Positions 2,481-38,230 of a stretch of 40,829 bases of DNA are shown here, piece after piece. This DNA comes from Methylococcaceae bacterium (lineage in GTDB: Bacteria > Pseudomonadota > Gammaproteobacteria > Methylococcales > Methylococcaceae). Within the stretch, counting starts at the first letter, position 1, and the number at the start of each line of letters is the position of its first letter. The position numbers and the translations under genes are program-made. The notes beneath the pieces are model-generated. The model worked only from the letters and a program-made list of their open reading frames with translations, was not told the origin of the DNA and did not search any database. Location of the stretch: positions 1 to 40,829 of the forward strand of contig JBILXN010000001.1 of assembly GCA_044378425.1 (NCBI GenBank), in the 5' to 3' direction.

Positions 2481-2954
2481 ATGCTCCGCATCAGCAAGCT
2501 CACCGACTACGGCATCATCGTACTAGGCTACATGGCAAGGTCTCCCGGCGAGACCTACACCGCCACCGATCTTGCCGATCAGGCCCAATTAGCGGGGCCG
2601 ACCGTCAGCAAGGTGCTCAAGGCACTGACCCGGGCGGATGTACTGACCTCCACGCGGGGCTCGCGGGGCGGGTATCAGCTGACGCTGCCGCCCGAAAAAA
2701 CCACCGTCGCCAGCATCATCAATGCGCTGGAAGGGCCTATAGCCCTGACCGAATGTGGGCTTGACCCTGTCCATTGCGAACAATCCTCGTCCTGCCATGT
2801 GCGGGGCAACTGGTCCGTACTGAACCGGGCCATACAGACGGCGCTGGAATCCGTCACCCTCTCCGACATGGCCCATCCCATGACGCATGCCCCGGAGGGA
2901 TTCATGATTCCGCTCAGCAGTATCACCGTTCAGCCAAGACGATTAACGGAGTAA
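2481..2954 (+). CDS. Rrf2-family transcriptional regulator, SUF-system type
   Basis: Rrf2 wHTH start [12 protein letters not shown]. Cys cluster C-x6-C-x5-C ([16 protein letters not shown]). Lies 4 nt upstream of sufB. Confidence 0.85.
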
Positions 2955-2958
2955 AACC

Positions 2959-4404: not shown

Positions 4405-4437
4405 TCCCACAACACCAGATATCCCATACGCAACACC

Positions 4438-5190: not shown

Positions 5191-5203
5191 GGGAAACCGA
5201 ATC

Positions 5204-8794: not shown

Positions 8795-9893
8795 ATGCGC
8801 GAACTTAATCCCCTCTACGCTCAAATCAAAGACCTCAGGAGCCGCGAAGAGGCTCTTAGGGGGTATCTTTGACTTCGAGGAAAAACAGGAACGTCTAACC
8901 GAAGTTCTGCGGGAGCTCGAAGACCCCAAAATCTGGGATAAACCGGAATTGGCCCAGGCACTTGGCAAGGAACGTACCCAACTGGAAGGCGTCGTTCATA
9001 ACCTGACCCGTATCAAGCAGGGCGTCGAGGACACCGAGGAATTGCTCACACTCTCGGTGGAAGAAGACGATGAGGATAGCGTAGAGTCGATTGCGAGCGA
9101 TCTTGCCGCCTATGAATCAGACATTGCCGGCCTGGAATTTCGCCGCATGTTTGCCGGCGAAATGGATCCGAACAATGCTTTCCTTGATATACAATCCGGC
9201 TCCGGCGGCACCGAGGCTCAGGACTGGGCGGCCATGCTGGAACGCATGTACCTGCGTTGGGGCGAGCGACGCGGCTTCAAAACCGAACTGGTCGAAGAAT
9301 CGGCCGGCGATGTCGCCGGTATCAAAAGTGCCACCATCCGTTTCGAAGGTGAATATGCCTATGGTTGGCTGCGAACCGAAACAGGTGTTCACCGCCTTGT
9401 GAGAAAGTCCCCCTTCGACTCAGGCAACCGTCGCCATACCTCATTTTCCTCGGTTTTCGTGTCACCCGAAGTGGATGACAACATTGACATCGATATCAAC
9501 CCCGCAGACCTCCGCACTGATGTCTATCGAGCCAGTGGCGCTGGCGGGCAGCATGTTAACCGGACCGAATCTGCCGTACGTATCACGCACCTCCCCTCAG
9601 GCATTGTCGTTCAGTGTCAGAGTCAGCGTTCACAACATGCCAACCGCGACACCTGCATGAAGCAGCTTCGCGCAAAGCTTTATGAAATGGAAATGCAAAA
9701 ACGCAACGCCGAAAAGCAAAAGCTTGAGGACTCCAAATCTGACATTGGCTGGGGCAGCCAGATCCGTTCCTATGTCCTAGATCAGTCCCGGATCAAGGAT
9801 TTACGCACCAATGTCGAAACCAGCAACCCGCAACCGGTGCTGGATGGCGACATTGATATGTTCATAGAAGCCAGTTTGAAGAGCGGTTTATAA
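8795..9893 (+). CDS. prfB: Peptide chain release factor 2, decoded with a +1 programmed frameshift at 8870
   Basis: A short frame-0 ORF (ATG 8795, [25 protein letters not shown]) stops at TGA 8870-8872. The +1 frame continues from GAC 8871 into the 314-aa tracked ORF, which contains SPF and GGQ ([16 protein letters not shown]). Confidence 0.95.
8858..8873 (+). promoter_or_regulatory. RF2 autoregulatory frameshift site AGG GGG TAT CTT TGA C
   Basis: An internal Shine-Dalgarno-like AGGGGG lies 3 nt before the slippery CTT followed by the TGA C stop context. This string matches the classical E. coli prfB site as I recall it. Confidence 0.9.
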
Positions 9894-9896
9894 ACG

Positions 9897-11387
9897 ATGA
9901 GTGATGTGCAAGACGAAAACAAATTGACCGCCCAACGCCGCGAGAAACTCTCAGCGCTGCGCCAACACGGTCAGGCCTATCCTAATGATTTCCGCCGCGA
10001 TTCACTCGCGAAGGATATCCATGACCAGCACGGAGGGCTTAGCGCCGAGGAACTGGATACTCAGACCCTCTCGGTCAAACTTGCCGGCCGACTCATGACC
10101 AAGCGCATCATGGGCAAGGCATCGTTTGCCCACCTACAGGATATGTCGGGGCGTATTCAGATTTTCCTGCAACGCGACACTCTACCCCAGGGTGTTTATG
10201 AAGCATTCAAATCCTGGGATCTCGGCGATATCGTGGCGGTGGAGGGCCAGTTATTCTTGACCAAAACTGGCGAACTCTCGATTCGTGCCGCCAACCTGCG
10301 CCTGCTGACCAAGTCCTTGCGCCCATTGCCTGAAAAATTTCACGGCCTGACGGATGCCGAAACCATTTACCGGCAACGCTACGTCGATCTCATCATGAAC
10401 GAAGAGTCTCGCCGGGTTTTCCTGCTGCGCAGCGCAATTGTGCGCTATATCCGAAATTTTCTAGACCAACGCGGCTTTCTCGAAGTCGAAACCCCCATGA
10501 TGCAGGTGATACCCGGCGGCGCACGGGCAAAGCCCTTCATCACCCATCACAACGCACTGGATATGGATCTGTACCTCCGTATCGCACCAGAGTTGTATCT
10601 AAAACGTCTAGTGGTCGGGGGGTTTGAAAAGGTATTCGAGATCAATCGGAGCTTTCGTAACGAAGGCTTATCGACCAAACACAATCCCGAATTCACCATG
10701 ATTGAGTTCTATCAGGCCTATGCAGATTATCGCGACCTGATGGATCTGACGGAGACACTCTTGCGGAGTATGGCGGAACACCTGCTAGGCGGCAGCGAGA
10801 TCACCTATCAGGGAGTGACCTACGATCTTGGCAAACCCTTCCGCCGCATGACGGTTATCGAGTCCATTTTGCACTACAACCCGGATATTGAACCAGAACA
10901 ACTGGCGGATATGGCCAAGGCCACCGCAGTGGCGCGCGGCCTCGGTATCAAAGTGAGTGGCAGTGATGGATTGGGCAAGATCCAGACTGAGATATTCGAA
11001 AAGACCGTTGAAGACAAACTCTTCGAACCGACCTTCATAACGGCCTATCCGGCCGAAGTATCCCCCTTGGCACGACCTAATGATGCCGACCCGTTCATCA
11101 CCGACCGATTTGAATTCTTCGTAGGTGGTCGCGAATTGGCTAATGGATTCTCGGAATTGAACGACCCTGAAGATCAGGCCGAACGCTTCCGCAAACAGGT
11201 GGAGGATAAGGATGCCGGTGATGAGGAGGCCATGCACTTCGATGCAGACTACATTCGGGCGCTGGAATATGGCATGGCTCCCACGGCTGGCGAAGGTATA
11301 GGCATTGACCGACTGGTCATGTTTTTCACTGATTCAGCATCAATCCGTGACGTCATACTGTTCCCGCACATGCGGCGGGAAAGCTAA
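9897..11387 (+). CDS. lysS: Lysine--tRNA ligase, class II
   Basis: 496 aa with class II motifs ([32 protein letters not shown]). Classic prfB-lysS arrangement with a 3-nt gap. Confidence 0.95.
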
Positions 11388-11521
11388 ACATTAGGGCAGC
11401 ACATCAATAGGATAGGTCGCCCTAACAAACACGCGACCTGTCAGGGCACTGATTCATTGGCATTTTCGATCAATATCGTGATATCACTCCCGGACGACAC
11501 GTAACCCGTGATTCCGGTAGG

Positions 11522-12373
11522 CTACTTTGCAGCAATGGTTTTACCGTCCTTATCCACCATCGGGATTCGATAGGACTGGACTAATGCCTGTATCTTCTCA
11601 GCATTCTTGACGATCAGTTCATCCAACTGCTGCTTTCGCTGTTTGTCGGGAATTCTAACCCCCATGGATATGGGGAAGTCGAACTTCAAACCTTTTTCGG
11701 TATTCATCGGAATCACTTCATACTGTGCGGGATCTTGGGATGCGATGTATCCAGCCATCGGACCCCAGATAATGACCATGTCAATCTTGTCTGCAGCAAA
11801 ATCACGAGCCAAAACCTGTGCGGCATTCTCACTGACGTCACCCGTCATGGTCTGATAGGGAATGCCCTGACCTATTAAACCGTGATTAAGCAACCAGGTT
11901 GTACCGGGCGCACCATCGAACATGGCAATTCGCAAAACCGACTTCTTTTCATTAGACAGTTTATCGATATCTTCAGGCGTTTTTACTGAATCAAGGCCAT
12001 GGCCACGTTTGTAAACCAGCGCATAGACCGATCGGTAATAAGGGGATGTGGTGGCCGCTAGTTCAAACCCGGTGGGTACCCCCATAACCACATCACATTG
12101 ATACCCTTCGCCATCCACTCGCTTTGCTTTTAGAGTGTTGCGAATAAAGCCGAGCCTCTGTGGAAACCAGGTGTACTCGAGTTGCTGCCCCAAATCGGCC
12201 GCAAACAGTTCTGCAATTTTGTTTTCAAGACCGTCGTTTTTGCGAGTGGAAAGCGGCGGGTTATTGGGGTCTGCACAAACCTTGAACACCGACTGATCCG
12301 CCTGACTTACCGTTGCCGACAGCATCAGTGATAACAGACCACCTACCACACGCCCTCTGGTTATATGCCACAT
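11522..12373 (-). CDS. xoxJ: MoxJ/XoxJ-like periplasmic binding protein associated with quinoprotein dehydrogenases
   Basis: Signal peptide and a periplasmic-binding-protein-like sequence (FKVCADPNNPPLS). Lies immediately downstream of xoxF on the same strand. Confidence 0.75.
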   Translation of the reverse strand: MWHITRGRVVGGLLSLMLSATVSQADQSVFKVCADPNNPPLSTRKNDGLENKIAELFAADLGQQLEYTWFPQRLGFIRNTLKAKRVDGEGYQCDVVMGVPTGFELAATTSPYYRSVYALVYKRGHGLDSVKTPEDIDKLSNEKKSVLRIAMFDGAPGTTWLLNHGLIGQGIPYQTMTGDVSENAAQVLARDFAADKIDMVIIWGPMAGYIASQDPAQYEVIPMNTEKGLKFDFPISMGVRIPDKQRKQQLDELIVKNAEKIQALVQSYRIPMVDKDGKTIAAK

Positions 12374-12473
12374 TAATCAATCTCCTGCGTAAAGTTCTGA
12401 ATCGACTGTTTGACCCGCAAATCCATCAAAATTCATGCTCTGACAATTGCCTTTTTACAAATCATCAGGCCCC

Positions 12474-12540
12474 ATAAAAACAAAACCCCGGTTGACGAAT
12501 CAACCAGGGCTCGGGTTTACGAGGGTCCCGGAGGACCCTC
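12474..12540 (-). terminator. Tandem hairpins after xoxF, including an intrinsic terminator
   Basis: On the minus-strand RNA, GAGGGUCC-UCCG-GGACCCUC lies at 12521-12540. It is followed by CCCUGGUUGA-UUCG-UCAACCGGGG (12486-12509) and then UUUUGUUUUU. Confidence 0.7.
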
Positions 12541-12552
12541 CCTCACCGCGTC

Positions 12553-14415
12553 TTACTTAGGCAGAGCGAATACAGTGAACACGCCGCCCAGCTTGGTGTG
12601 AGCCCCAAGGCTCTTGTAGGCACCTACAGCGCCAAGGCCTTCGCTATCACCCTCAAGACCCGCCGCCATACCTACACCAGCCCAGCCACCAATACCAGAC
12701 AGTACGCCGATGTACTGCTTGCCATTGTGAGTCCAGGTACTAACGTTACCGATGATTCCGGATGGCGTTTTGAACTTGTACAGTTCTTCACCCGTGTTGG
12801 CATCACGAACTTTGAGGTAACCCTCAAGGGTGCCGTATATAACGATGTCGCTAGCGGTAGAAACCATGCCACTCCATAGGGAGAACGGCTCATCAATCTG
12901 CCATGCGATTTTTCCGGTGGTCGGATCCCATGCAGTGAAGGACCCCATATGCTGCTTTTCTTCCTTCTCCCCGGTCTTGACATTAGTCTTGGCCGGATAG
13001 ATGTTCAGGGTAGCTCCTACATAAGGCTGACCTGCAGTGTATTCAACCTGGAACGGCTCATAATCCATACAAGTATGGTTGCCAGGGATGTAGATCAACT
13101 TGGTCTTGGGAGAGAAGGTAACGGGGGGTTCGTTCTTAGCACCCATCGCCGAAGGACAGATGCCCTTCTGGTTGTGATCTTCGCCACCGGCCTGTGTAGA
13201 GTACTGGCTCACTACCTGAGGACGACCTGTCTTGGCGTCAACATGGCTTGCCCAGTTCACCATTTTGTCGAACTTCTCGGCAACGAGCAGTTCACCGGTA
13301 TTACGATCCAAGGTATAACCGAACCCGTTGCGGTCGAAGTGGGTCAACAGTTTGGTGTGCTCTTTGCCTTCCTTGTCCTTCATGGGCAGGTCGATCAGGG
13401 TCATTTCGTTGATCCCGTCGTAATCCCATTCATCGTGCGGAGTCATCTGATAGACCCACTTGGCAGCACCAGTATCAGCGTCGCGTGCCCAGACGGTCAT
13501 TGACCACTTGTTATCGCCAGGACGCTGAACCGGGTTCCAGGTAGAGGGATTACCTGATCCGTAAAAGATGAGGTTTGTGGCCGCATCATAGCTGACCCAG
13601 CCCCAAGTAGTACCGCCACCGATCTTCCATTGGTCACCCTGCCATGACTTCAAGGAAGAATCCTTGCCGACCGGTGCCATTTTGCCGTCGGTCCAGGTCG
13701 TGGTCTTGTCGGGATCGATCAGCATTTCGGCATCAGGACCGGTACTGTAACCCTTCCAGGCCAAACTGCCATCCTTGATGTTGTAGGCCGCCATGAAGCC
13801 GCGTACGCCAAATTCTCCACCGGAGATACCGATCAGAACCTTATCCTTCACAACAACCGGAGCACTGGTGTTGGTCATACCCGCCTTCGGGTCACCATTC
13901 TTCACCTTCCATACCATCTTGCCGGTCTTCGAATCCAAGGCAACCAATGTTGCATCACCCTGTGCGATGAAGACCTTACCGTCACCATAGCCGAGACCAC
14001 GGTTGACGACGTCACAGCACATTACACCGATAACCTGTGTCGGGTCGGTGCCTTTATCAGGAGAGTAGTCGTATTCCCACACCACGCTATGGGTGTCCTG
14101 ATCAAGCGCATAGATCTTGTGCGGGAAACCGGTATGGATGTAGATCAGTCCATTGACAACCAGAGGACCACCTTCATGACCACGCAGAGCACCTGTTGAG
14201 AAGGTCCACATGGGCTGGAGGGTTTTGGCGTTGTCCTTGTTGATCTGGGTCAGGGTGCTGAATCGGCTACCATAGTAGTCGCCACCCCAAGTTGCCCAGC
14301 TTGCTGGGTCATGGGTCAGTTTCTCGACCTCGGCATTGGCGAAACTCATCCCGGGGGCAGCGATCGCAGTCGCTACAGCGGTCGCGAGCAGCCATTTTTT
14401 GACGGGGTTATTCAT
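12553..14415 (-). CDS. xoxF: PQQ-dependent methanol/ethanol dehydrogenase, XoxF (lanthanide-dependent) type
   Basis: 620 aa with a signal peptide and the vicinal Cys pair GVMCCD. The WDYDG motif (Asp331-Tyr-Asp333, nt 13417-13425) carries the extra Asp that distinguishes XoxF from Ca-dependent MxaF (DxA). Confidence 0.9.
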
Positions 14416-22216: not shown

Positions 22217-23350
22217 TCAGATATTCAGCCGATTACAGATCAGCGTGATGATCGAGTCGGCGATGACGATGAATACGATCCCTGTCACCACTGCCGAAGT
22301 AGCAGCATCACCGACTGCAGAAGCACTGCGCCCGCACTGCATGCCACGCAAACACCCCGCTAGCGCTATTAGCACACCAAACACACCACATTTGAAAAGA
22401 CCCACAAAGAAATCGCTCAGTTTTACCGCCTCGGCTGTGCGGTGCAGATATTGGGTGAGCGGCGTATCAAAAAACGCCACGCTAACCATCCCTCCCCCTA
22501 TGATGCCCAGCAGGTCGGCGTAGAGGCATAGCAAGGGCATGACCAGAATCAGTGCCAACATGCGCGGCAGAACCAAAAACTCTACCGGGCCAAAGCCCAT
22601 TACCCGCAATGCCGATAGTTCAAGATTCACGTTCATGGTGCCTATTTGTGCGGCAAAAGCAGCGCCCGAGCGCCCCGACATAATGATGGCTGTCATCAGC
22701 GCACCCATTTCACGGGTCATGCCCAAAGCAACCAGATCGGCAATGTACAACTGGGCGCCGAACAGGGCCAGCTGCACGGCGCCCACAAAGGCCAGTATCA
22801 GACCGACCAGCAAACTGATCAGCGTTACGATGGGCACAGCCGCCGGGCCACATTCCTGAATCTGCAACCAGAGATCAATCGGCCGAAACCGTGCACGGGC
22901 TCCGGCCAGCGCGGCAAACGCCAGTACGGCCTCCCCGACAAAACGGGTCAGAGCCAGACCATCCAGCCATAACATGCGCGTAGATTCGCCAATCGTCTGA
23001 AGCCACTGAGCACGGTTCGCATCCCGTCGAGCACCCTCGCGCTCTGGCACGGCGGTGGCAAGATCAATCAACTTGATAACGCCCTCCGGCAACTTTGACC
23101 GGTCGGGGCTTAGGCTAACGGCCTGTGCCTTCATGAGATCAAGCAGGAATGTCATCAGGACACTGTCCCACTCACCCAAGGCCCTGCCATCCAGGGTGAC
23201 CAGCGCAGCCTCGGGATAGTGTGCCAGCGCCTCCAGCACCTCCTGCGCATCCGTGGTCACACGCTCTGACACCGTCCAGTCACCTCGCAGAACCAGGGAT
23301 ATAGATCCGGGGGCGCTCTGTTCAAGTTGCCAGTGAGGGGAAACGGTCAT
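22217..23350 (-). CDS. MlaE-family ABC permease with an N-terminal STAS-like domain
   Basis: 377 aa. The first roughly 110 aa are soluble and STAS-like (ISLVLRGDWTV...). The remainder is a multi-TM MlaE-type permease. Confidence 0.85.
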   Translation of the reverse strand: MTVSPHWQLEQSAPGSISLVLRGDWTVSERVTTDAQEVLEALAHYPEAALVTLDGRALGEWDSVLMTFLLDLMKAQAVSLSPDRSKLPEGVIKLIDLATAVPEREGARRDANRAQWLQTIGESTRMLWLDGLALTRFVGEAVLAFAALAGARARFRPIDLWLQIQECGPAAVPIVTLISLLVGLILAFVGAVQLALFGAQLYIADLVALGMTREMGALMTAIIMSGRSGAAFAAQIGTMNVNLELSALRVMGFGPVEFLVLPRMLALILVMPLLCLYADLLGIIGGGMVSVAFFDTPLTQYLHRTAEAVKLSDFFVGLFKCGVFGVLIALAGCLRGMQCGRSASAVGDAATSAVVTGIVFIVIADSIITLICNRLNI

Positions 23351-23441: not shown

Positions 23442-23566
23442 CATCAACCAAGCAGGCACTATGGATCCGGTAAATCAGGCTTATCCGAGAGATGGGAATC
23501 GCCGGCCACCCATTCGGGATACAATAGAGCCACCTTCAGCCAGCCCTCTCAGCAGGAACAACGGAT

Positions 23567-26470
23567 TTGTCCGGCCCCCTCGACTTATTCATCAGCCACG
23601 ACCACAGCTCTCAGGCCGAGGTGAAGCGGCTCTCCTCCGCACTGGCGGCCAGAGGCTTGTCATGTTGTGCAGTTGAAACCCAGTACGGGACCGAACTGCA
23701 GCCGCGCATGGCAACCGCCAAAGTAGTGCTGATCTGGGGTTCGGATGCTTTCTTCAGATCCCGCAATGGTCAGACTCATCTGGCTCTGGCCTGGATCGCC
23801 TGTCACCAGCCCAGACCGACCCAACCCGGCCGGATTGTCATCATTAACGCCGAACCCGGCTTGAAGCACATTTACCCACTGGCCCTGCGGGAGCATGTAC
23901 TGGCTGCAGCACCAGGTCTTGAGGGTGCCCCCGATGCGACCGCTCTTGCAGAAAAAATAGGCCGGCACTGTGAACAGTTCAGCGGCACACTGGGCGGTCT
24001 TTACCCGGCAGTCGTGGGCGGCTGGCGTGAAGCCTATGACATGGCCAGCCGACCCTCTCCGCATTTTGCCGGCCGTGAACGGGAACTCTGGGATATTCAT
24101 ACTGCATTATCCCCCCGCACAGAGCCGGGACCGGCTGACCGGTGCACGCCTCGCAGGGTGGTCATCTCGGCCGGTGCCGGGCAAGGAAAATCCACCTTGG
24201 CACGCGAATACGCCTTTCGTTTCGGTGCTGCGTACTCAGGCGGTGTCTTCCGACTGTCGGCTCGTGATGCACTGCCTGCCGCCAGCATAAGGGAGCTGGC
24301 TGAAAATCCGGCACTGAAACCTCAGTTGCTGGCATTGCTGCGAGAACTGACACCGGAATCCGCCCTTGACGATAGCACCGGGCTTGCCACCGTAACGGCG
24401 AGCCTCGAATCTGCGCTAACCCGTGACGCCAGGCCCTTTCTTTGGATTGTCGACGATATTCCCGAGGGTATTAATGGCCCGGCCCTCCAGCAGTGGTTTG
24501 CTCCTGACCGTTCGGGATTCTGGGGCAGTACCCTCCTCATCAGCCGCAGCCAGCGCTACGACCACCGGGCAGAGCCCATTCACCTGCCAAGCCTCGACGA
24601 TGATGCCGGTTTCACCTTGCTCACCCGCGGCCAGCAGGTCACCCGCCCCGACGAGCGCGATGCGGCTCACTGGTTGGTGGATGCGCTGGGACGACATGCC
24701 CGCTTTGTCACCATTGCCGGTGGCATCACCGCATCACAACGACGTGGTCGCCGATCGCACTACGGTCATCTGCTTCACCATTTTGAAAAGAAAAACCGCC
24801 TATCCGCCGATCTGGTGTCTCGCCACCCAGGGGCATTTCCCGAAGGTCACGCCCCCACCGCGGCAACAGCACTGGCCGATGGCATCCTCGCCCTTCATGA
24901 ACCCGCCCGTAACATTTTGCTGCTCGCGGGTGAACTGACAGATTATCCCCTGCCTGCTGACTTCATCGTGGAGTGCTTCATCCTCGCAGGGCTGAATAGC
25001 GCGGATCACGGGGACGACCGATTCAGCATCCGTATCAATGCCCCCGAAGACGAGGCCATGACGATCGAGACTGGCCCGCACTATGTCGAAGCCGGTGCCA
25101 GAATGCTGGAAAACCTGGGACTGGCCGAACTGAACGACCAGTCACTCTCGCTCTACCCGGTCGCTATTGCGGTAGCAGACACATTAATCCCGGCACCTGG
25201 CCGACAAGCCAACTTTCGTGAAGCCGCCCTGCAGGCACTTTATGTCGTTGCCGAATCCTGCCTCGCCAGTGGCGATTGGCGGCAGCTGGCAGCACTGGCC
25301 CCCCATGGCCACAGGCTGCTTGGCGATATCCGCAACCGCCCCATAGATGCCGAGGACTCTACCGCGGAAATTACCGGACGCATCCGTCTTGCCCTGCATC
25401 TGGCGGACATGGATCTGCGACATGGGGCGCGCAAGCGGGCGATCCAGCTCTATCGCGCCACCAATGCCTATCTGGTCCGTGCGATGGCGCTCGAACCCCA
25501 CAACGGATCAAGGCAAAGGGATTTCGCCCGCATTCAGGAGCAGCTCGGTGACCTGCTGTTCGATCAGGGCGAACTTTCTTCTGCCCTTGACCATTTTCGT
25601 AAAAGCCTTGGTGTTCGCTCTTTCATGGCGAAGCAGGATCCGGCCGGCAGTGAACTGCTGCAAGACCTGCTGCGACATCACGGCAAAATAGGAAAAATAC
25701 TGATCACCCAGCAGGATTACGAGGCTGCCCTGCAAAGTTATCGCGCCGCCCATGCCATCACGGCCAAACTGGCGCAGGAAACCGCTAACGACACCAACCT
25801 GCAGTTTGATCTGGCCGGGAGTTACGAGCGGCTGGCCGGAATCTACAGTCGTCTTGGCAATGCCAGAGCCGCCATGTCGGCACTGGCGCTGGCCCAGCCT
25901 ATCCTCGAAACACTGACCGACCGCCAGCCTCGGGAGATTCGCTTTGGCAAGGCGCTGGCCGCCGTGCACAACATGACGGGCGACCTACTAAGGATCCAGG
26001 ATGATTTGTCGGGCGCACTGAATCGCTACCGTATGGCACTGTCGATTGCCGAAAACACTGCCCGACTGGCGCCCGACGAACATGATTTACAGCGCGATAT
26101 CGCTGTCTGTCACGACAACCTGGGCGAAACTCTCTCGGGTCTTGATGACCCCAATGAAGCCCAGAACCACTTCCTGGCCTGCTTGTCGATTGCCGACCAC
26201 CCGGACAATCGACCCGCGTTCAGCGGACTCAGGCGCCGCGACATTGCGGTGGTCATGATAAAACTGGGGATGCTGCAGGAAACGGCAAAGGATATCGATG
26301 GTGCCCTGAACCGCTATCAGGGCGCTCGCAGTATCATTGAGCGGTTGGCCATTGACTTACCCGATAACGAGGCGTTAAGGGAAGACCTCTCCTGGCTAAG
26401 AAAGAAACTCGACCGCCTCAACGACAAGAAAGCCGCCGAATTACGCAGACGTGCCCGGGAAACGCGTTAA
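23567..26470 (+). CDS. TIR-like / P-loop STAND NTPase (NB-ARC-type) / TPR-repeat protein (967 aa)
   Basis: TTG start. N-terminus GPLDLFISHDH... resembles the first strand of TIR-type domains. FAGRERELWDI is followed by Walker A GAGQGKST (24173-24196), Walker B FLWIVDDI (24437-24460) and TLLISRS. The C-terminal roughly 350 aa hold at least 6 TPR-like units. Confidence 0.8.
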   Translation: MSGPLDLFISHDHSSQAEVKRLSSALAARGLSCCAVETQYGTELQPRMATAKVVLIWGSDAFFRSRNGQTHLALAWIACHQPRPTQPGRIVIINAEPGLKHIYPLALREHVLAAAPGLEGAPDATALAEKIGRHCEQFSGTLGGLYPAVVGGWREAYDMASRPSPHFAGRERELWDIHTALSPRTEPGPADRCTPRRVVISAGAGQGKSTLAREYAFRFGAAYSGGVFRLSARDALPAASIRELAENPALKPQLLALLRELTPESALDDSTGLATVTASLESALTRDARPFLWIVDDIPEGINGPALQQWFAPDRSGFWGSTLLISRSQRYDHRAEPIHLPSLDDDAGFTLLTRGQQVTRPDERDAAHWLVDALGRHARFVTIAGGITASQRRGRRSHYGHLLHHFEKKNRLSADLVSRHPGAFPEGHAPTAATALADGILALHEPARNILLLAGELTDYPLPADFIVECFILAGLNSADHGDDRFSIRINAPEDEAMTIETGPHYVEAGARMLENLGLAELNDQSLSLYPVAIAVADTLIPAPGRQANFREAALQALYVVAESCLASGDWRQLAALAPHGHRLLGDIRNRPIDAEDSTAEITGRIRLALHLADMDLRHGARKRAIQLYRATNAYLVRAMALEPHNGSRQRDFARIQEQLGDLLFDQGELSSALDHFRKSLGVRSFMAKQDPAGSELLQDLLRHHGKIGKILITQQDYEAALQSYRAAHAITAKLAQETANDTNLQFDLAGSYERLAGIYSRLGNARAAMSALALAQPILETLTDRQPREIRFGKALAAVHNMTGDLLRIQDDLSGALNRYRMALSIAENTARLAPDEHDLQRDIAVCHDNLGETLSGLDDPNEAQNHFLACLSIADHPDNRPAFSGLRRRDIAVVMIKLGMLQETAKDIDGALNRYQGARSIIERLAIDLPDNEALREDLSWLRKKLDRLNDKKAAELRRRARETR

Positions 26471-26560
26471 TATCCCGCCTGAACCAGCCCTGCACTGCCA
26501 CAATTGACGCGCTTTTTAGGATAATACCCACCTTCAAATCCGCTCATTACACCCCTCCCC

Positions 26561-28321
26561 ATGAAAAAACGCCTCGAACGCTTGCTGCAGGAAGCTGTTG
26601 CCATTCTGAAAACCGACGGAACACTGCCGCATGATAGTGATCCCGTCACTACGGTGGAGCGCGCCCGCGACGCACAGCATGGCGACTTCGCCACCAACCT
26701 TGCCATGGCGCTGGCCAAACCGGCCCGCAGCAATCCGCGGCAACTGGCAGAGAAGATCATCGCCGCACTGCCTCACGACCCCGCCATTCTCAAGATCGAG
26801 ATTGCAGGCCCAGGCTTCATCAACGTTTTCATCGATCCCAAAGCCCAGTTTGGCGTGATCAAGGCCATTCATGAAGCGGGTCCGGCCTTTGGCCGTCATC
26901 AAATAGGCGCAGGCCAAAAGGTTCAGGTCGAGTTTGTCTCCGCCAATCCCACTGGCCCCTTGCATGTCGGTCATGGCCGGGGCGCCGCTTTTGGCGCGGT
27001 TGTAGCCAACCTGCTGGCGGCTGTCGGTTTCGACGTCCACCGTGAATATTATGTGAACGATGCTGGCCGGCAAATGGATATCCTTGCTGCCAGCGTGTGG
27101 CTCCGCTATCTGGAAGAATGCGGCGAATCACTGATTTTCCCCAGCAACGGCTACCGTGGCGATTATGTCCGCGCAGTGGCGTTTGAACTGCATAAAGTCC
27201 ACGGCGAAAAGCTTCGCCACACGGCAACCGAGGTTTTCAAAGACCTGCCGCTGGATGAACCAGAAGGCGGCGACAAGGAGATTTACATTGATGCCGTAGT
27301 CACCCGCGCCAAGACCCTGCTGGGCGCCGCGGGCTATGACGCGGTATTTGATAGCGGACTCAACAGCATACTGGCCGATATCCGGCAGGATCTTGAGGAA
27401 TTCGGCGTACGCTACGAGGACTGGTTTTCCGAACGCGGGCTCACCCGGTCGGGCGCGGTAGAACGGGCGTTGGCCACATTGAAAGCGGCGGGCTATCTGT
27501 ATGAGAAAGAGGGTGCCATCTGGTTTGCTTCCAGCCAGCTGGGGGATGAGAAAGATAGGGTCGTCGTGCGCGAAAACGGACAGATGACCTATTTCGCCTC
27601 CGACATCGCTTACCACATGCACAAACTGGAGCGCGGCTATGACCGCATTATCAACATTTGGGGTGCTGACCATCATGGCTACATACCCAGGGTCAAAGCT
27701 GCCATCGGTGCACTCGGCGGCGACCGCGATAAGCTCGAAGTCCTACTGGTGCAGTTCGCCGTGCTTTATCGCGGTGAAGAGAAAGTACAGATGTCAACGC
27801 GCTCCGGCGAATTCGTGACTCTGCGGCAATTGCGTAACGAGGTCGGCAGGGATGCCGCACGATTCTTCTACGTCATGCGAAAATCCGATCAGCATATGGA
27901 TTTCGATCTCAAGCTGGCCACCTCGCGCACCAATGAAAATCCGGTGTATTACGTTCAGTACGCCCACGCCCGCGTCTGCAGTGTATTCCGGCAATTGGAT
28001 GAAAAAGCACTGCCACGGGATCTGGCCAGCGGCATGGCTCAACTGGAACTACTGGTGGAGCCCCATGAGACGGCGCTGATTACCCGTCTTTCGCGTTATC
28101 CCGAGGTTATTGAGCAGTCCGCCTTGCAGCATGAACCGCATCATCTGATTCACTACCTGCGTGAGCTGGCCTGTGAGCTGCATACTTACTACAACGCCCA
28201 TCAGTTTCTGGTCGAAGACGTTGCGCTGCGGGATGCCCGACTGAATTTGATCGCGGCCGTCCGTCAGGTCATCGCCAATGGCCTGGCGCTGTTGGATGTA
28301 TCTGCACCGGAATCTATGTAA
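26561..28321 (+). CDS. argS: Arginine--tRNA ligase
   Basis: 586 aa. HIGH-type motif [25 protein letters not shown] (KMSK-equivalent). C-terminal anticodon-binding domain. Confidence 0.95.
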
Positions 28322-28325
28322 GGTC

Positions 28326-28874
28326 ATGGCCAAGGATCTCAAGCATCGCGTTCCGGCTTTTCGCACACGCAAAAAGAAAGCCCTGAACCGCTGGTTCCTA
28401 GCCTGCATCGGCGTGACGGTGATCAGCGTTGCCTTGATCGTCGGTGTTGGTCACCAAAAGACACCCGCCGGAAGCAGTTCCGCAACCCCTCAAAAAATGG
28501 CAGACGCGCCCACTGCGCCACCCAAGCCTCGCATCGGCTTCTTTCAATTGTTACCGGACAGTGAGCAACGCATCAGCGACGCCGATATCAAGGCAGAGTT
28601 GAATGAAATCCGCTTGGGCAAAACTGCTCGTTCAGGGTCCTACTTGCTCCAGACCGGGGCATTCACTGAACAAGCAGAAGCGGAGTCTTTAAGGGATGAA
28701 CTGCAGCGCCTCACCAAAACCAGGCCCAGACTTGAACTGATCAAGATGGAGTATGCCACCTGGTTTAGGGTCATACTTGGACCCTACAGGACGCTGCCTG
28801 ACGTCGATAAAGTCCGCAGTTTTCTGACAGAACACCACGTTGACAGTATCGTCCAGACATCAATAGATCCCTAG
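28326..28874 (+). CDS. SPOR domain-containing membrane protein (FtsN-like)
   Basis: The ATG at 28326 lies just after the argS stop. The tracked start at 28278 lies inside argS. One TM helix. C-terminal SPOR-like segment YLLQTGAFTEQAEAESLRDEL...WFRVILGPY. Confidence 0.7.
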   Translation: MAKDLKHRVPAFRTRKKKALNRWFLACIGVTVISVALIVGVGHQKTPAGSSSATPQKMADAPTAPPKPRIGFFQLLPDSEQRISDADIKAELNEIRLGKTARSGSYLLQTGAFTEQAEAESLRDELQRLTKTRPRLELIKMEYATWFRVILGPYRTLPDVDKVRSFLTEHHVDSIVQTSIDP

Positions 28875-31814: not shown

Positions 31815-33419
31815 ATGTTTACCCCTGACTCTTCTGGCCTCGATCTTCGCTTCGATAACAAGTATATCCGTGAATTGCCGGGTGATCCTGATACCAGTCC
31901 TAACCGGCGGCAAGTGTATGGCGCCTGTTACTCATATGTAACGCCTTTGACCACCCCCTCACCTCACTTGGTAGCCTTTTCACCTGACCTCGCAACCGAA
32001 TTAGGGCTATCGCCAGAGGCGTGCCGATCGGCAGCATTTGCAGATGTTTTCAGCGGAAATCGACTCCTAGCAGGCATGTCACCCTATGCGACCTGTTACG
32101 GCGGTCATCAATTTGGACAGTGGGCAGGCCAACTCGGCGATGGCCGGGCCATTAATCTCGGGGAAGCCATAACGGAGGCAAAGAGTCGACTGACCTTACA
32201 GCTCAAAGGCGCGGGTCCGACACCTTATTCGCGCTCAGCTGACGGCTTGGCAGTATTGAGGTCCTCTGTCAGGGAGTTTCTCTGTAGTGAGGCCATGCAC
32301 GCTCTTGGGATTCCTACGACACGCGCCCTGAGCCTGGTAGCCACTGGCAGGACGGTTATTCGCGACATGTTTTATGACGGCAGACCCCGGGCCGAGCCGG
32401 GAGCCGTTGTCTGTCGCGTCGCTCCCTCATTCACCAGATTCGGTAACTTTGAGTTATTTGCCGCTCGGGGCGATCGTGAAACCCTTAAACAGTTGGTAGA
32501 TTACACGCTCGATGACAGTTTCCCTGAGCTAGGTTCGCCATGTCCCGACGCTTATGTTGCATGGTTCGATGAGGTTTGCCGAAGGACAGCGCGGCTAATT
32601 GTTGAGTGGCAACGCGTGGGCTTTGTACACGGAGTGATGAATACGGACAACATGTCCATATTGGGCCTCACCATCGATTACGGCCCATACGGTTGGCTGG
32701 ACGATTACGATCCCAACTGGACCCCAAATACTACGGATGCTCACACTCGACGGTATCGGTATGCCAATCAGCCCCAGATTGCTTACTGGAACCTGGTCAA
32801 ACTTGCCAACGCGATATATCCGCTCATTGGTTCCGAACAGGCGCTGCAAGATGCGCTCACTAGTTATACCTTGACTTATAACGCCGCGTGGCAGGACATG
32901 ATGGCCCGAAAATTGGGCCTACCCAAGTATCATCCCGATCTTGATGATCATCTAATATCCGAACTGCTAACGATTCTTGCAGCCGTTGAAACGGATATGA
33001 CCCTTTTCTACCGTCGTCTCGCCTTAATCGATACCCGTATGGTGGACTCTTGCAATGAGTCAATCATAAGCCCACTAACAGAAGCGTATTACAACCCAGA
33101 TCATGTCACGGATGGCGAAAAGGCCACACTAGCACAGTGGCTACGACGTTACCTTGATCGACTCAGGATTACCAATGAGCCAAATAGCGTACGGACAAAT
33201 CGAATGAACTCGACAAATCCCCTTTACATACCGAGGAATTACATTACTCAGGAAGCTATTGATAAGGCTGAAACAGGGGATTATGCAACAATCGAGCAGT
33301 TACTCTCCGTTTTCAAGACACCTTACTGCGAGCAACCCGGTCTGGAGAAACTTGCCGCTAAGCGTCCGGACTGGGCTAGGAATCGGGCCGGTTGCTCGAT
33401 GCTCTCGTGCAGTTCCTAA
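31815..33419 (+). CDS. selO: Protein adenylyltransferase SelO (YdiU/UPF0061)
   Basis: 534 aa with GGHQFGQWAGQLGDGRA, LKGAGPTPYSR, HGVMNTDNMSILGLTIDYGPYGW and the C-terminal MLSCSS. Confidence 0.9.
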   Translation: MFTPDSSGLDLRFDNKYIRELPGDPDTSPNRRQVYGACYSYVTPLTTPSPHLVAFSPDLATELGLSPEACRSAAFADVFSGNRLLAGMSPYATCYGGHQFGQWAGQLGDGRAINLGEAITEAKSRLTLQLKGAGPTPYSRSADGLAVLRSSVREFLCSEAMHALGIPTTRALSLVATGRTVIRDMFYDGRPRAEPGAVVCRVAPSFTRFGNFELFAARGDRETLKQLVDYTLDDSFPELGSPCPDAYVAWFDEVCRRTARLIVEWQRVGFVHGVMNTDNMSILGLTIDYGPYGWLDDYDPNWTPNTTDAHTRRYRYANQPQIAYWNLVKLANAIYPLIGSEQALQDALTSYTLTYNAAWQDMMARKLGLPKYHPDLDDHLISELLTILAAVETDMTLFYRRLALIDTRMVDSCNESIISPLTEAYYNPDHVTDGEKATLAQWLRRYLDRLRITNEPNSVRTNRMNSTNPLYIPRNYITQEAIDKAETGDYATIEQLLSVFKTPYCEQPGLEKLAAKRPDWARNRAGCSMLSCSS

Positions 33420-33772
33420 TGTGGCCTCGGGAAATATGAAGTCAAAGGGAAATCTGGCGATTCCTTTGTGTTGCCGGCCGATAAAGATAGATTTCCCAAC
33501 TCCAGCACTAGCGGAGTTCAACAGAAGCTTTACCTCGATAGAGGGCGTTGGAGTAGGGCTTGGGGTAGGTGTCGATGAAGGGTTAGCTGGCTAAATGGGG
33601 AGGGCTGAAGATGGATGCGTCGTGTTGAAACGACGGGTCCTCGCGCACCCCAATGAGCTGCCAACCGCTGTGCTTAGGTTGATGCGCGCCAGTCACCTGT
33701 ACTTTTCAGGTTTCTTTCCTATAAAATTTGCCTACTTTCAACACATAACATTATAAAAAGAGGCCCCCTATT

Positions 33773-35776
33773 ATGACGCTTGAAGTACGGCTTAGAATAA
33801 TACTTCTTTTACTGTGCGCATTCTGGGTAGGCTTTGCAACCGCAAAGCCTCTAACCATAACAAACATCAGCTTTATCGCAAAAAATAAAAAAATACCGAA
33901 TGTCGCCATGAATCCGGGCGATGAAACCACTATAACGTGGACATTCTCAGAGCCAGTCAAACGTTTTACCATTACTTACACTAATGGATCTATTCTTTCT
34001 CAGCCAATCCCGCTAGATGAGTCCGGTCAGCCAAGCGAACTAGATGGGTATGCAAGAATCTGGACAGCAAGGGTTGTCGGAGTACCGTGGAAAGAATTCT
34101 CCAGCGTTGATTCTTTTGTTTATCAGTCTGCTGATGATATTCTGGCTTCAGACGTTTATGTTGTGCCTTATGCGTTTTGGTATGTGGCAGACAGCGGCCC
34201 CCCCTATGTGAGCACCGCCCCGCTGGACCCTGGCGCCGCTTGGGTACGCGTCGATCGTGAACCCAGCTATGCCAAATGGGGCCCCGACTATAAATCGATT
34301 AGCTTTGATCCGCCGCCGTTGTCAGCCCTGATGCGGCTGAAACAAACTCTGGCGGCAGCCAACATCATCTCCAGCGCAGGGGCCAGCGAAACCACCCTTT
34401 CCGCTAACGCCACATCCCCCACATACGCATTCAATATTGGGAGCTATATTATTCATGTGGTTCCGGGGACCATATCTTCGGGGGGCAGTCAGGTAGCTGC
34501 CACTTTTCAGGCGGGGCTGGACGGGAGCGCACTGACGGTAGTCCCTCACGGAACGGATGCACCGCCCTATCAGGTTCAAGTTTTTGATGCAGGGACCGGG
34601 GAAGCCGTGACGGGTGTGATTGACTTGACGCCCACGACCGGAAGCCAATCTGCCTTCGTTTTGGCAACTCCTCAAAATTCGGGAGTACCGATTGATATCA
34701 CACAGCATGATTTCTCGCCGGACACCACGCTTGACATCAGTGCCGGCACAATTTCGGCTCAGCAACTACAGGTGCCACATCGGACTAGCACAGAGAGCCA
34801 TAATTTGGGTTCTGTACCGAGCATTACGGATATCTCTCAGGCTTCCGGCGACGTGGCGGGTGGGACTGAAGTTATCCTCACAGGATCCAATCTGCTTGAT
34901 GTAACGAGTGTCAAATTTGGGCCAAACAGTGCGGCATCTTTTACCGTAGTGAGCGCGACGGAAGTCAAGGCGTTTAGTCCCGCAGGTGTTGCGGGTACTG
35001 TGGATGTCTCCGTCACATCCGCCGTGGCCACAGACTATCTTCGCAACGCTTTCACCTATACCGGACCATCCTCGGATAAAACGCTATCGAACCTGGTATT
35101 AGATGGCGGCACCTTGTCGCCGCTGTTTACACCAGAGACGGCCCATTACATGACGTCCGTCGCTCATTCGGTGAGCAGCATTACGGTGACGCCGACGGTG
35201 AATGAGCCTCACGCTACAGTCAAGGTGAACACTCGCTCTATAACGAGTGGCTCCCCTTCGGATGCTATTAGCCTTGCGGTAGGGGCCAATACGATCTCGG
35301 TCGAGGTAACCGCTCAGGATGGCCAGACCACAGGCACTTACAACGTGGTCGTCACACGAGCAGCCCCTTCCTCCTCAGGAGAGGGCGGAAGTAGCGTCGA
35401 TCCTGCACCGCCAGTCGATCCAATACCAATGCCAGTGCATCTCCAGACCCGGGATGACACCATCAACACGTGGATCAGTAAGGCGATCAACGGCAATGTG
35501 GCGTCGAACGATACCTTTCCGTCGGGAGCGATATTCTCGCTCGCTACTGATGTCGGCCATGGCAGGCTGGCACTGATGTCAGATGGGGCCTTCAGCTACG
35601 TGCCGATGAAAAAATTCAAAGGCATGGATAGCTTTACCTACAACGTCTGTTCAAGGCAGCTACGAGCAACTGCTCAACATCGACCTCAACGATTAACGTC
35701 GGGATCTACAAACTGGCTCAACATGTGCTGGCACTCTCAGTCAGCAAATGGGAAATACCGCCTCGCGCCTGGGTAA
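33773..35776 (+). CDS. Secreted repeat protein with IPT/TIG, cadherin-like beta-sandwich and Ig-like (VCBS/tandem-repeat type) domains; the reading frame breaks near 35651-35655
   Basis: Signal peptide. IPT-like PSITDISQASGDVAGGTEVILTGSNL. Cadherin-like LSNLVLDGGTLSPLF...GTYNVVVTR. DSFTYNVC is followed by out-of-family sequence in this frame. Confidence 0.7.
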   Translation: MTLEVRLRIILLLLCAFWVGFATAKPLTITNISFIAKNKKIPNVAMNPGDETTITWTFSEPVKRFTITYTNGSILSQPIPLDESGQPSELDGYARIWTARVVGVPWKEFSSVDSFVYQSADDILASDVYVVPYAFWYVADSGPPYVSTAPLDPGAAWVRVDREPSYAKWGPDYKSISFDPPPLSALMRLKQTLAAANIISSAGASETTLSANATSPTYAFNIGSYIIHVVPGTISSGGSQVAATFQAGLDGSALTVVPHGTDAPPYQVQVFDAGTGEAVTGVIDLTPTTGSQSAFVLATPQNSGVPIDITQHDFSPDTTLDISAGTISAQQLQVPHRTSTESHNLGSVPSITDISQASGDVAGGTEVILTGSNLLDVTSVKFGPNSAASFTVVSATEVKAFSPAGVAGTVDVSVTSAVATDYLRNAFTYTGPSSDKTLSNLVLDGGTLSPLFTPETAHYMTSVAHSVSSITVTPTVNEPHATVKVNTRSITSGSPSDAISLAVGANTISVEVTAQDGQTTGTYNVVVTRAAPSSSGEGGSSVDPAPPVDPIPMPVHLQTRDDTINTWISKAINGNVASNDTFPSGAIFSLATDVGHGRLALMSDGAFSYVPMKKFKGMDSFTYNVCSRQLRATAQHRPQRLTSGSTNWLNMCWHSQSANGKYRLAPG

Positions 35777-37096: not shown

Positions 37097-38230
37097 TCAG
37101 ATGCGCCCGGTTGAATACTCGTCCAATACATAGCGTGTACTGCGCCCACCCGCATCCATTTTCCGCAGCACGCCCCGCGCCAGCAGATCGTTGATGTCAC
37201 GCAGCGCCGTATCCGGCGAACACTTGGCGATGGCAGCCCATTTGCTGCTGGTGAGCTTGCCTTCAAAACCATCAAGCAGTTTGTTGAGTAACTTTACCTG
37301 CCGCTCATTGAACGGCATAGTCGCCCAGTGTTGCCAGAACCGTGTTTTGGTCAGCACAGCGTCAAGCGTATGCTGAGCCTGGTCGACGGCGCGATGGAGC
37401 GTGTCGAGGAACCAGACAAGCCACTCAGTCACATCCATAGAACTCTTTTGGGTCCGCTCCAGGATGTCGTAGTAGGCCTTGCGTTCACGCTGAATCTGCG
37501 CTGACAAACTGTAGAACCGTTGAGGACTGCCGTCCGCACGCGCCAGCAGAAGGTCGCCGATGGCCCGGGCAATACGGCCATTGCCGTCGTCAAATGGATG
37601 CAAGGTGACAAACCAAAGGTGGCATAGGCCGGCCTTAAGTAGTGGTGGTTCGCTCAATGGAGCATTCAGCCAGTCGAGAAAGCAGCTGATTTCGGCTTCA
37701 AGGCGATCGGCAGGCGGTGCCTCGAAATGCACCCGCTGCCGACCAATGGGGCCAGACACCACTTGCATGGGCCCGCTGGCATCGTCGCGCCAGCCGCCGA
37801 CCTTGATCTTGGCTAGACCGGAGTAGCCGGTGGGAAACAGCGCGGCATGCCAGCCGAACAGCCGCTCCCGCGACACACTTGTATCACAGTTAGCGGTCGC
37901 GTCGAGCACCATCTCCACCACACCTTCGACATGACGATCCACCGGAGCGAGCGCGCCGATGTCGACTCCCAGCCGTCGTGCGATAGATGAGCGCACGGAC
38001 TCAACGTTGAGCTGCTCGCCCTCAATTTCGCTAGTCTTGACCACGTCCTCGGTCAACGCGGCCAGGCTTGCCAGGTCACGCAGCGCCATGCCCACGTCGG
38101 CCAGACGCCCTATCAGCAAACCTTGGGCACGACTCACATCCGCCATGGGCCCGGCGAGCGCCGCCAGATCGAAGTGCCAGTTTGGCCAGTCACCCGCCTG
38201 CCAGATGTATTTGTAATCTCCGCTATTCAT
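37097..38230 (-). CDS. Fic family protein (DUF4172-type N-terminus, canonical AMPylase motif, C-terminal wHTH-like region)
   Basis: HPFDDGNGRIAR at nt 37565-37600. Inhibitory-helix-type motif TSEIEG at 38018-38035. N-terminus YIWQAGDWPNWHFD. Confidence 0.9.
   Translation of the reverse strand: MNSGDYKYIWQAGDWPNWHFDLAALAGPMADVSRAQGLLIGRLADVGMALRDLASLAALTEDVVKTSEIEGEQLNVESVRSSIARRLGVDIGALAPVDRHVEGVVEMVLDATANCDTSVSRERLFGWHAALFPTGYSGLAKIKVGGWRDDASGPMQVVSGPIGRQRVHFEAPPADRLEAEISCFLDWLNAPLSEPPLLKAGLCHLWFVTLHPFDDGNGRIARAIGDLLLARADGSPQRFYSLSAQIQRERKAYYDILERTQKSSMDVTEWLVWFLDTLHRAVDQAQHTLDAVLTKTRFWQHWATMPFNERQVKLLNKLLDGFEGKLTSSKWAAIAKCSPDTALRDINDLLARGVLRKMDAGGRSTRYVLDEYSTGRI

Follow-up and report, generated by a model that had tools for sequence, protein, structure and literature searches.

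A TIR/NB-ARC-type STAND/TPR-like protein with a degenerate TIR active site encoded upstream of argS in Methylococcaceae

The stretch of DNA analysed here, in the following called the window, comprises 40,829 nucleotides of a Methylococcaceae bacterium (GenBank assembly GCA_044378425.1, contig JBILXN010000001.1, positions 1–40,829, forward strand). At positions 23567..26470 of the plus strand it carries a coding sequence with a TTG start for a protein of 967 amino acids (aa), which consists of a TIR-fold domain, an NB-ARC-type STAND NTPase and seven TPR-like repeats of 48 aa. Position and length of this open reading frame (ORF) had been given in a preliminary description made from the letters alone and are exact; likewise the tripartite layout and the homology to prokaryotic NLR-like proteins could be confirmed. 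The same description regarded the gene as a typical stand-alone abortive-infection gene with a NAD+-depleting TIR domain. This proposal is not borne out, as the catalytic glutamate is replaced, the BB loop is short, the gene occupies a fixed locus and no PADLOC model matches the protein.

The gene and its domains

The start codon is supported by the N-terminus (M)SGPxD[LIV]FI, which is conserved from residue 2 in all homologues. In the alignment of the upstream regions the TTG (23567–23569) is invariant across lineages (L009, L011, L014, L016, L018, L023, L025, L026). The Shine–Dalgarno sequence (23554..23558, plus strand) is AGGAA in the window and AGGAG in most orthologues, with an invariant GGA and a distance of 8–9 nt to the start codon. 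An invariant TTG beside a strong AGGAG points to selection that keeps translation initiation at a fixed and probably low rate. The full-length AlphaFold2 model, which was built on 42 orthologues, has a predicted local distance difference test score (pLDDT) of 89.7 and a predicted template modelling score of 0.79.

The TIR-fold domain extends over aa 1–135 (23567..23971, plus strand) and had been correctly recognized before. The window protein alone matches Pfam TIR_2 (PF13676) at aa 8–108 with 27.3 bits, just below the cutoff of 28, but the family is found in 40 of 42 orthologues at E ≤ 0.1 (best 1.2e-8), and a profile of the region matches solved TIR structures in the PDB at about 1e-11. As the whole-chain Foldseek search is dominated by TPR proteins and is uninformative on the TIR domain, aa 1–150 were modelled separately. 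The resulting model (pLDDT 90.5) has a flavodoxin-like five-fold beta-alpha topology, and all 17 PDB matches at E ≤ 1e-3 are TIR domains with template modelling scores of about 0.44–0.68. Among them are MAL, RUN1, AbTir, TLR1, PdTIR and TcpB/BtpA, with the MAL filament structure 5uzb at the top. The opposite outcome considered in the preliminary description, a non-TIR N-terminus in a DNA-binding regulator, was thus not found, and the protein has no DNA-binding domain.

The active site of this domain is degenerate. The motif of helix alpha-C reads SRNGQTHL in the window protein (aa 65–72, 23759..23782, plus strand), where H71 aligns with the catalytic Glu and T70 with the Trp next to it. In the more distant family from which the protein derives, hereafter the parent family, the motif is SRxCQWEL, whereas it is SRxCQxHL in the clade of the window protein. 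Among 42 aligned clade members the Glu column holds H in 28, Q in 10 and E, L, P and R in one each, whereas the Glu is kept in 48/48 sampled relatives outside the clade with 48-aa repeats (14/14, 4/4 and 30/30 in three sets). The column could be anchored to the solved NADase TIRs AbTir (..NYEL), PdTIR (..QKEL), BtpA (..AREL) and Cat1 (..WDEL). This Glu is required for the NADase activity and for the cell death caused by TIR domains (PMC9806590). In addition, the BB-loop region after strand beta-B (about aa 36–47, 23672..23707, plus strand) is shortened: in the alignments it lacks 6 residues that the parent family has, and the pattern D-E-x-x-I-x-D-F-x-x-I is gone in the clade. Because the catalytic Glu and the neighbouring Trp are lost and the BB loop is shortened, the TIR domain of the clade most likely no longer cleaves NAD+.

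The nucleotide-binding domain (aa 166–345, 24062..24601, plus strand) opens with an invariant FxGRERELWD and has the NB-ARC motif order that had been proposed. In the Walker A motif GAGQGKST (aa 203–210, 24173..24196, plus strand) G205 and K208 are invariant, and K208 had been rightly named as the Walker A lysine. The Walker B motif FLWIVDD (aa 291–297, 24437..24457, plus strand) is also intact, with L292 and W293 invariant and D or E at position 296 in 42/42 members; the second acidic residue, D297, is variable (D33 N4 G4 E1). In the RNBS-B or sensor-I motif TLLISRS (aa 322–328, 24530..24550, plus strand) the window protein has R327. This Arg is found in 28/42 clade members (others E5 H2 C2 N2 K1), whereas the parent family is uniformly T[TS]R-like. 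The helical and winged-helix part of the module follows at aa 346–598 (24602..25360, plus strand) and contains a GLPL-like LGRHARF at aa 374–380. At the MHD position the window protein has Y530 and the clade Y13/H12/P6 and others (n = 42), whereas a VH is conserved in the parent family. Since both the sensor-I Arg and the MHD His vary, ATP hydrolysis and the locking by ADP may be altered. The winged-helix region of the argS-linked clade also contains an insert of about 22 aa (about aa 476–500, 24992..25066, plus strand) with the consensus SADDRKEDLFTIFLNEPxExP, which is modelled with low confidence and is absent from the parent family and from the related protein P0072 (see below).

A profile of the NTPase built from the clade and the parent family matches Apaf-1 (4e-12) and AfsR (3e-11), followed by ADR1, PH0952, NRCs and Roq1. 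For this reason we place the NTPase in the NB-ARC/AP-ATPase clade of STAND proteins. The only Pfam match of the window protein alone in this region is AAA_16 (aa 167–298, 27.6 bits versus a cutoff of 32.6), while members of the parent family exceed the cutoff of Pfam NB-ARC. Pfam NACHT gives weak matches in 5/42 members (best E 0.018), and a classification as NACHT-type (bNACHT) protein was rejected since these matches are weak and the NTPase groups with NB-ARC.

The C-terminal part had been described as at least six TPR-like units of about 40 aa. Its TPR-like nature is correct, but model, periodicity and Pfam show seven helix-hairpin repeats of exactly 48 aa each (aa 599–934, 25361..26368, plus strand), followed in the AlphaFold2 model by a capping helix (aa 935–967, 26369..26467, plus strand). 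The identity between units is 0.20 at a period of 48, compared to 0.076 ± 0.008 in shuffled sequences and 0.057–0.078 at the other periods tested; thus the period is 48 aa and not 34. The Pfam families TPR_12, TPR_8, TPR_2, TPR_11 and TPR_1 exceed their cutoffs at about aa 630–940. High identity between repeats is a sign of repeat shuffling in the fast-evolving sensors of fungal and bacterial NLR proteins. The argS-linked members, with a lag-48 identity of 0.11–0.21, have diverged, “frozen” repeats. Such diverged but individually conserved repeats would suggest a fixed ligand rather than a target in an arms race.

All domains are under purifying selection. The ratio of nonsynonymous to synonymous substitution rates (dN/dS, Nei–Gojobori), calculated for close orthologue pairs, is 0.04–0.21 overall and 0.05–0.21 in the TIR domain, 0.06–0.17 in the NTPase, 0.03–0.26 in the helical part and 0.02–0.20 in the repeats. 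The mean pairwise identities (TIR 0.48, NTPase 0.55, helical part 0.40, repeats 0.47) do not reveal a hypervariable sensor.

The argS locus and the distribution of the gene

A search of 5.8 billion proteins yielded about 60 full-length homologues (950–1007 aa, 36–62% identity), and intact ORFs of about 950–1000 aa are found in more than 60 clusters at 90% identity. The few named homologues belong to Methylococcaceae or Methylomagnum; beyond these, the matches fall sharply to partial ones. The gene is a single-copy orthologue, with 33–62% identity among the carriers. In every context long enough to show it, the gene lies directly 5′ of argS (arginyl-tRNA synthetase; 26561..28321, plus strand, in the window), which is followed by a gene for a SPOR-domain protein (28278..28874, plus strand), the conserved argS partner, and all three genes are on the same strand. 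This arrangement covers 17/17 loci of GTDB species representatives with sufficient contig as well as metagenomic carriers, and argS and the SPOR gene also follow the gene in Methylomagnum ishizawai (MishRS11D_25830, 36% identity) and in two lineages from lake metagenomes. The spacer between the gene and argS measures 79–320 nt across carriers and 90 nt in the window.

The upstream side is different. The preliminary description had correctly noted an Mla operon upstream and argS downstream, and a divergent Mla-type ABC operon is indeed found 5′ of the gene in most carriers, in the window with an mlaE-like permease gene at 22217..23350 (minus strand). Methylomagnum has a gene for a PKD protein and the riboflavin operon (rib) at this place, L022 also lacks the Mla operon, and DsbB–PhoBR or AAA_15 and DUF4276 genes are found in other carriers. 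The upstream side of the gene appears to vary by recombination, unlike the junction between the gene and argS. The MlaE-like permease of the window is long (377 aa) and has an N-terminal extension of about 110 aa; a faint STAS_2 annotation on its orthologue in L006 points to a fusion of the permease with a regulatory domain.

Both intergenic regions contain conserved promoter-like elements. In the alignment of the region between mlaE and the gene a −10-like box TACAAT (23520..23525, plus strand) is conserved within GGGATACAAT, a sequence common to 7/9 aligned lineages with three columns invariant in 9/9; judged from this alignment it is probably the gene's own promoter. The spacer in front of argS contains an invariant GATAAT (26520..26525, plus strand). 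In ten lineages a TTGTCA-like −35 box, a spacing of about 18 nt and the invariant GATAAT form a sigma-70-like promoter about 35 nt before the argS ATG; in the window (26495–26525) the −35 box is the weaker CTGCCA and the spacing is 19 nt. A scan for consensus promoters and terminators found neither in the two intergenic regions, and the conserved −10 boxes become visible only through the cross-lineage alignments. From the conserved promoter in the spacer we conclude that argS has its own promoter. With one conserved promoter before the gene and another before argS, the linkage of the two need not mean an operon. An argS operon was therefore rejected as the cause of the linkage; the site upstream of argS may simply be a stable insertion site.

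With argS as a probe, 47 loci on metagenome contigs were found that have more than 3.2 kb upstream of a 65–81% identical argS, and the gene is present in 4/47. In a neighbour-joining tree of argS (without bootstrap) the carriers form one clade, and everything outside this clade has no gene at the locus. In a neighbour-joining tree of the TIR and NB-ARC domains (200 bootstraps) the clade with all known argS-linked members receives 98% support and the wider clade with 48-aa repeats 100%. The pattern of these trees fits a history of one acquisition, vertical descent and few losses or relocations.

The remainder of the window holds mainly housekeeping genes, namely the suf operon, prfB–lysS, a PQQ dehydrogenase gene, a glgX-like gene, Mla, argS and the SPOR gene, tsaC/sua5, mpl and selO. 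Scans of the window for tRNAs and Rfam RNAs gave no match, so that there is no tRNA-linked integration site, and the window is also free of mobile elements. The prfB gene for release factor 2 (8796–9893, plus strand) has a classical programmed +1 frameshift (site 8852–8873): AGGGGGTATCTTTGAC, an internal Shine–Dalgarno sequence followed by CUU UGA C, precedes the long ORF 8949–9893, whose Pfam PCRF match begins at profile position 24. It is followed by lysS (9897–11387). A patch of low G+C content at 11000–12500 (0.48 versus about 0.56 for the window) holds a 283-aa ORF without Pfam match (11522–12373, minus strand) and adjoins the gene for a 620-aa PQQ-dependent dehydrogenase (MxaF/XoxF-like, 12553–14415), which fits a methanotrophic host. 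A second such patch (0.47–0.50) within 32500–35776 comprises the 3′ end of selO and the intergenic region downstream of it; the gene for a 667-aa surface-type protein with TIG, cadherin-like and Big_9 domains (33773–35776) comes after it. Near the end of the window are two Fic/DOC genes (a DUF4172–Fic protein of 376 aa, 37097–38230, minus strand, and a Fic protein of 465 aa, 38839–40236, plus strand), which are the only accessory or toxin-like genes in the window.

The parent family and related systems

A phmmer search with aa 1–600 against 1.84 billion representatives returned 834 relatives, 164 of them at E ≤ 1e-30. Only about 11 clusters at 50% identity cover all 600 residues; the parent family follows after a step in the score from 226 to 172 bits. 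Homology to the latter is confined to about aa 5–475, that is TIR and NB-ARC, with 27–35% identity. A scan of species genomes found these distant relatives, there with 27–31% identity up to about aa 470 from aa 1, in Dadabacteria, ANME archaea, Skermanella (two copies), Kutzneria, Streptomyces, Verrucomicrobia and others. The parent proteins consist of TIR_2 (43–63 bits), NB-ARC (several above the cutoff) and TPR_10/12, and their repeat period is 42 aa as opposed to 48 aa in the clade of the window protein. Their TIR domains match the PADLOC models ThsB, SAVED-TIR and PDC-S66, and some members adjoin AbiEii, transposase or SLATT genes. In two Kutzneria members (L044:5899–7839 and L042:5848–7689) the Walker A motif is GIGTSS, without the lysine, instead of GxGKS; they have another C-terminal domain in place of the TPRs, an independent degeneration of motifs within the parent family.

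Four deep-branching proteins obtained by the phmmer search combine features of the parent family and of the window protein. P0072 shares 36% identity with the latter from end to end, the 48-aa repeats included. It keeps the Glu, the full BB loop, the TTR and the VH and is without the winged-helix insert. Its repeats are near-identical, with a lag-48 identity of 0.51 and up to 90% identity between units, and it adjoins a SLATT-domain gene and not argS. Downstream of P0072 (L136:316–2997) two small ORFs (one DUF2283), a SLATT_1/SLATT_3 protein and a 645-aa protein without Pfam match are encoded at 3745–4758. These downstream genes may be an effector module for the NLR-like sensor; PADLOC gave no match for the neighbours tested (a 103-aa ORF, the SLATT protein and the 645-aa protein). 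In P0074 the Glu is lost, but the long BB loop and homogenised repeats (0.48) are kept; the contig stops just 3′ of the gene. P0071 has kept the Glu and lost the Trp and lies directly 5′ of an argS 71% identical to that of the window, with DsbB and PhoBR upstream. P0073, whose Glu is lost, lies 5′ of argS and the SPOR gene. Upstream of P0073 (L140:6001–8721), at 2410–5937, an AAA_15/AAA_21 ABC-type ATPase, a DUF4276 protein and a 492-aa protein without Pfam match are encoded, and the pair of ATPase and DUF4276 protein may resemble known defence modules. The TIR models of PADLOC recognise the parent family as well as P0072 and P0074, whereas the window protein, P0071 and P0073 give no match.

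When the window protein is compared with known systems, it fits TIR and NB-ARC as defined by their folds and shows the TPR features, but it lacks the catalytic features of NADase TIRs as well as the hidden Markov model match and the accessory location of the anti-phage STAND systems. The PADLOC check proposed for it returned 0 families at E ≤ 1, a scan against NCBIfam gave no match and a single-sequence search of the PDB gave only weak matches to the TPRs of OGT. In the searchable literature we found no description of the clade or of Glu-less TIR domains in prokaryotic NLR-like proteins. The architecture TIR-NB-ARC-TPR is already known in bacteria, fungi and plants (TNPs). The prokaryotic representatives, bacterial and archaeal NLR-like proteins of “TNP type”, were reportedly described by Dyrka et al. 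in 2020 (bioRxiv 10.1101/2020.01.06.895854). They have the same domain order as the window protein and share with it FxGR..LW.IH, GxGKS..A.EYA.RFG..YPGG.F.LS, LW[IV][IV]D, W.AP and NPE..HI.P. However, they have CQWEL, a full BB loop, TTR and VH, which the clade of the window protein has lost, and 42-aa repeats of TPR_10/12 type, sometimes near-identical, instead of 48-aa repeats and a winged-helix insert. They are also patchily distributed across phyla, sometimes in multiple copies and beside mobile or Abi genes, whereas the clade occupies one fixed locus. Such prokaryotic proteins are mentioned as well in the study of the plant TNPs (PMC9806590).

The plant TNPs (TIR-NBARC-TPR, formerly XTNX) resemble the clade not only in the layout but also in being a conserved, low-copy, non-diversifying branch of fast-evolving receptors (PMC9806590). 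They keep the catalytic Glu and TTR/GLPL/MHD, and the cell death caused by ZmTNP-IIa depends on the Glu and on the P-loop; the bacterial proteins resemble the plant TNPs in the NB domain only (PMC9806590).

The best whole-chain structural match is the STAND-TPR protein PH0952 (PDB 6mfv, E 1.3e-12), which covers the NTPase, the helical part and the TPRs but is without a TIR domain and has 12% sequence identity. The whole-chain matches also include SAMD9 and Avs3 (PDB 8dgc). The latter belongs to the Avs (antiviral STAND) proteins, which are said to have been described by Gao et al. in 2022. Avs proteins follow the same logic of effector, STAND and TPR-like sensor. In contrast to them, the window protein matches no Avs model of PADLOC, its NTPase is nearer to the NB-ARC of Apaf-1 and AfsR, its effector is degenerate and its gene is not located in a variable defence island. 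Finally, the adaptor TIRs of MAL/TIRAP and MyD88 have the TIR fold without NADase chemistry and assemble cooperatively, and it is the MAL structure that is the top match of the window TIR. Here only the fold is shared (14–16% identity), and a scaffold function of the bacterial domain is inferred.

A proposed domesticated NLR-like switch and the rival explanations

On balance we lean towards the view that the gene is an exapted (“domesticated”) NLR-like STAND switch, a mobile TIR-NB-ARC-TPR gene captured beside argS. Its ancestor would have come from the scattered, mobile prokaryotic TIR-NB-ARC-TPR family and would have been captured a single time, directly 5′ of argS, in the ancestor of one subclade of the Methylococcaceae, to which Methylomagnum and uncultured lake lineages of the “Methylococcus”/UBA6136 type belong. 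After the capture it would have been inherited vertically as a single copy under purifying selection. By homology to Apaf-1, plant NLRs and Avs proteins, the array of 48-aa repeats is predicted to bind a ligand, and nucleotide binding at the intact Walker A and B motifs would lead to oligomerisation of the NB-ARC domains, which would cluster the N-terminal TIR domains. The clustered TIRs might then form a non-enzymatic assembly or adaptor surface that recruits a partner or merely stabilises the oligomer. Such a role is probable since the TIR domain is conserved, as its dN/dS shows, though the Glu is gone. By analogy, the protein is probably still a nucleotide-dependent oligomerising sensor. 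Its physiological role could be residual immunity via a trans-acting effector or a cellular regulation.

A more far-reaching version deserves consideration, but we advance it with clear reserve: the immune gene could have been domesticated into the core genome of these methanotrophs, its TIR domain turned into a structural adaptor and the protein put to sensing an endogenous ligand outside of defence. It is then conceivable, although doubtful to the same degree, that we are dealing with an independently evolved bacterial counterpart of the adaptor-type TIR signalling in the TLR pathways of animals. As a tentative order of events, P0072 (mobile and intact) might represent the initial state, P0071 and P0073 (argS-linked and partly degenerate) the intermediate one and the core clade the fully degenerate one.

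Several observations weigh against a domesticated switch. The gene is 36–55% identical at loci where argS is 67–84% and MlaE 50–70% identical, and this faster evolution would also fit an ongoing conflict. In the TIR domain Q69, R89, N94, H101, Y103 and P104 are invariant or nearly so, which leaves room for an unconventional active site, and two argS-linked members, P0071 and P0039, have a Glu at the catalytic column. Retained Walker A and B motifs in an NLR layout are what an active immune sensor would show as well, and no partner protein was found. The preliminary description had stated that a syntenic and universally conserved gene would speak against defence. Synteny was found at all carrier loci with sufficient contig, so that the outcome largely speaks against defence, but universality was not: in the argS tree non-carriers are nested among the carriers, namely L059 and the group L058, L060 and L061. 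In these, either nuo genes or dnaN together with a CHASE-PAS-GGDEF gene stand in front of argS and the SPOR gene. Since it is missing in some nested lineages the gene is dispensable, as accessory defence genes are. In addition, the argS tree is without bootstrap and the genomic context is known for part of the clade members only.

These observations have to be weighed for the other explanations, too. An abortive-infection system of the Avs or TNL type, with repeats that sense a phage protein, a STAND module that oligomerises and a TIR domain that depletes NAD+ or makes a signal, would account for the tripartite layout with intact Walker motifs, the Avs3 fold match, the fast amino-acid divergence and the absence from some related lineages, and the TIRs of the related family match Thoeris and SAVED-TIR models and are sometimes encoded beside AbiEii, SLATT or transposase genes. 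Nevertheless, we regard it as unlikely, as the Glu is absent in 41/42 clade members with no other invariant acidic residue in the TIR domain except D6 of strand beta-A, the BB loop carries the deletion, PADLOC and NCBIfam have no match, the clade keeps one fixed locus amid housekeeping genes and the repeats are frozen with a low dN/dS (0.02–0.20). An immune sensor of the adaptor type, whose Glu-less TIR recruits or activates a separately encoded effector and which would be a core defence gene against an invariant phage feature, is a minor though real possibility. It draws on the same structural evidence as the domesticated switch and on the top fold match to the adaptor MAL, agrees with the raised divergence and the dispensability in some lineages and could take in the AAA_15/AAA_21 and DUF4276 pair upstream of P0073 with its presumed resemblance to defence modules. 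On the other side, argS and the SPOR gene are the sole constant neighbours and a conserved neighbouring effector is not found, PADLOC is silent, and the low dN/dS of the repeats agrees with this model without speaking for it; on the present data it is inseparable from a non-immune regulatory role.

Two further explanations fare worse. It appears very unlikely that the protein is a STAND transcription regulator of the MalT/AfsR type or works in functional coupling with argS and the SPOR gene, even though the NTPase profile search ranks AfsR second among the families, the top Pfam NTPase match of the window protein is AAA_16 and the linkage to argS is strict with a spacer that is without a terminator. 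The protein begins with a TIR domain and ends with TPR-like repeats, argS has its own conserved promoter in the spacer, and argS and the SPOR gene are present without the gene in most related bacteria. A transcription-regulator STAND was rejected because there is neither a Pfam match to a LuxR helix-turn-helix or SARP/OmpR-type domain nor such a domain in the model. That the Glu and Trp of the TIR domain, its BB loop, the Arg of sensor I and the His at the MHD position are degenerate might point to a decaying relic of a defence gene without current function. This explanation is scarcely credible in view of intact full-length ORFs in so many clusters, a low dN/dS in every domain, an invariant Walker A lysine, the conserved promoter, Shine–Dalgarno sequence and TTG and a confident AlphaFold2 model; with dN/dS well below 1 a pseudogene or relic was rejected.

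In general, NLR-like STAND proteins are viewed as accessory proteins of fast turnover, with the TIR domain acting as a NADase. The clade described here shows the opposite life history: a single origin, an argS side kept through several upstream rearrangements and catalytic residues that were lost while the TIR fold was maintained. For automated annotation this calls for caution, as the TIR-STAND-TPR layout alone does not establish a NAD+-depleting defence gene. If the domesticated switch holds true, the clade would be a tractable case of the domestication of an immune gene in bacteria, with Methylomagnum ishizawai as a cultured organism with a complete genome, and would provide a graded natural series for assigning NLR motifs to activities. 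In addition, it would allow us to test whether a non-enzymatic, adaptor-type function of TIR domains exists in prokaryotes.

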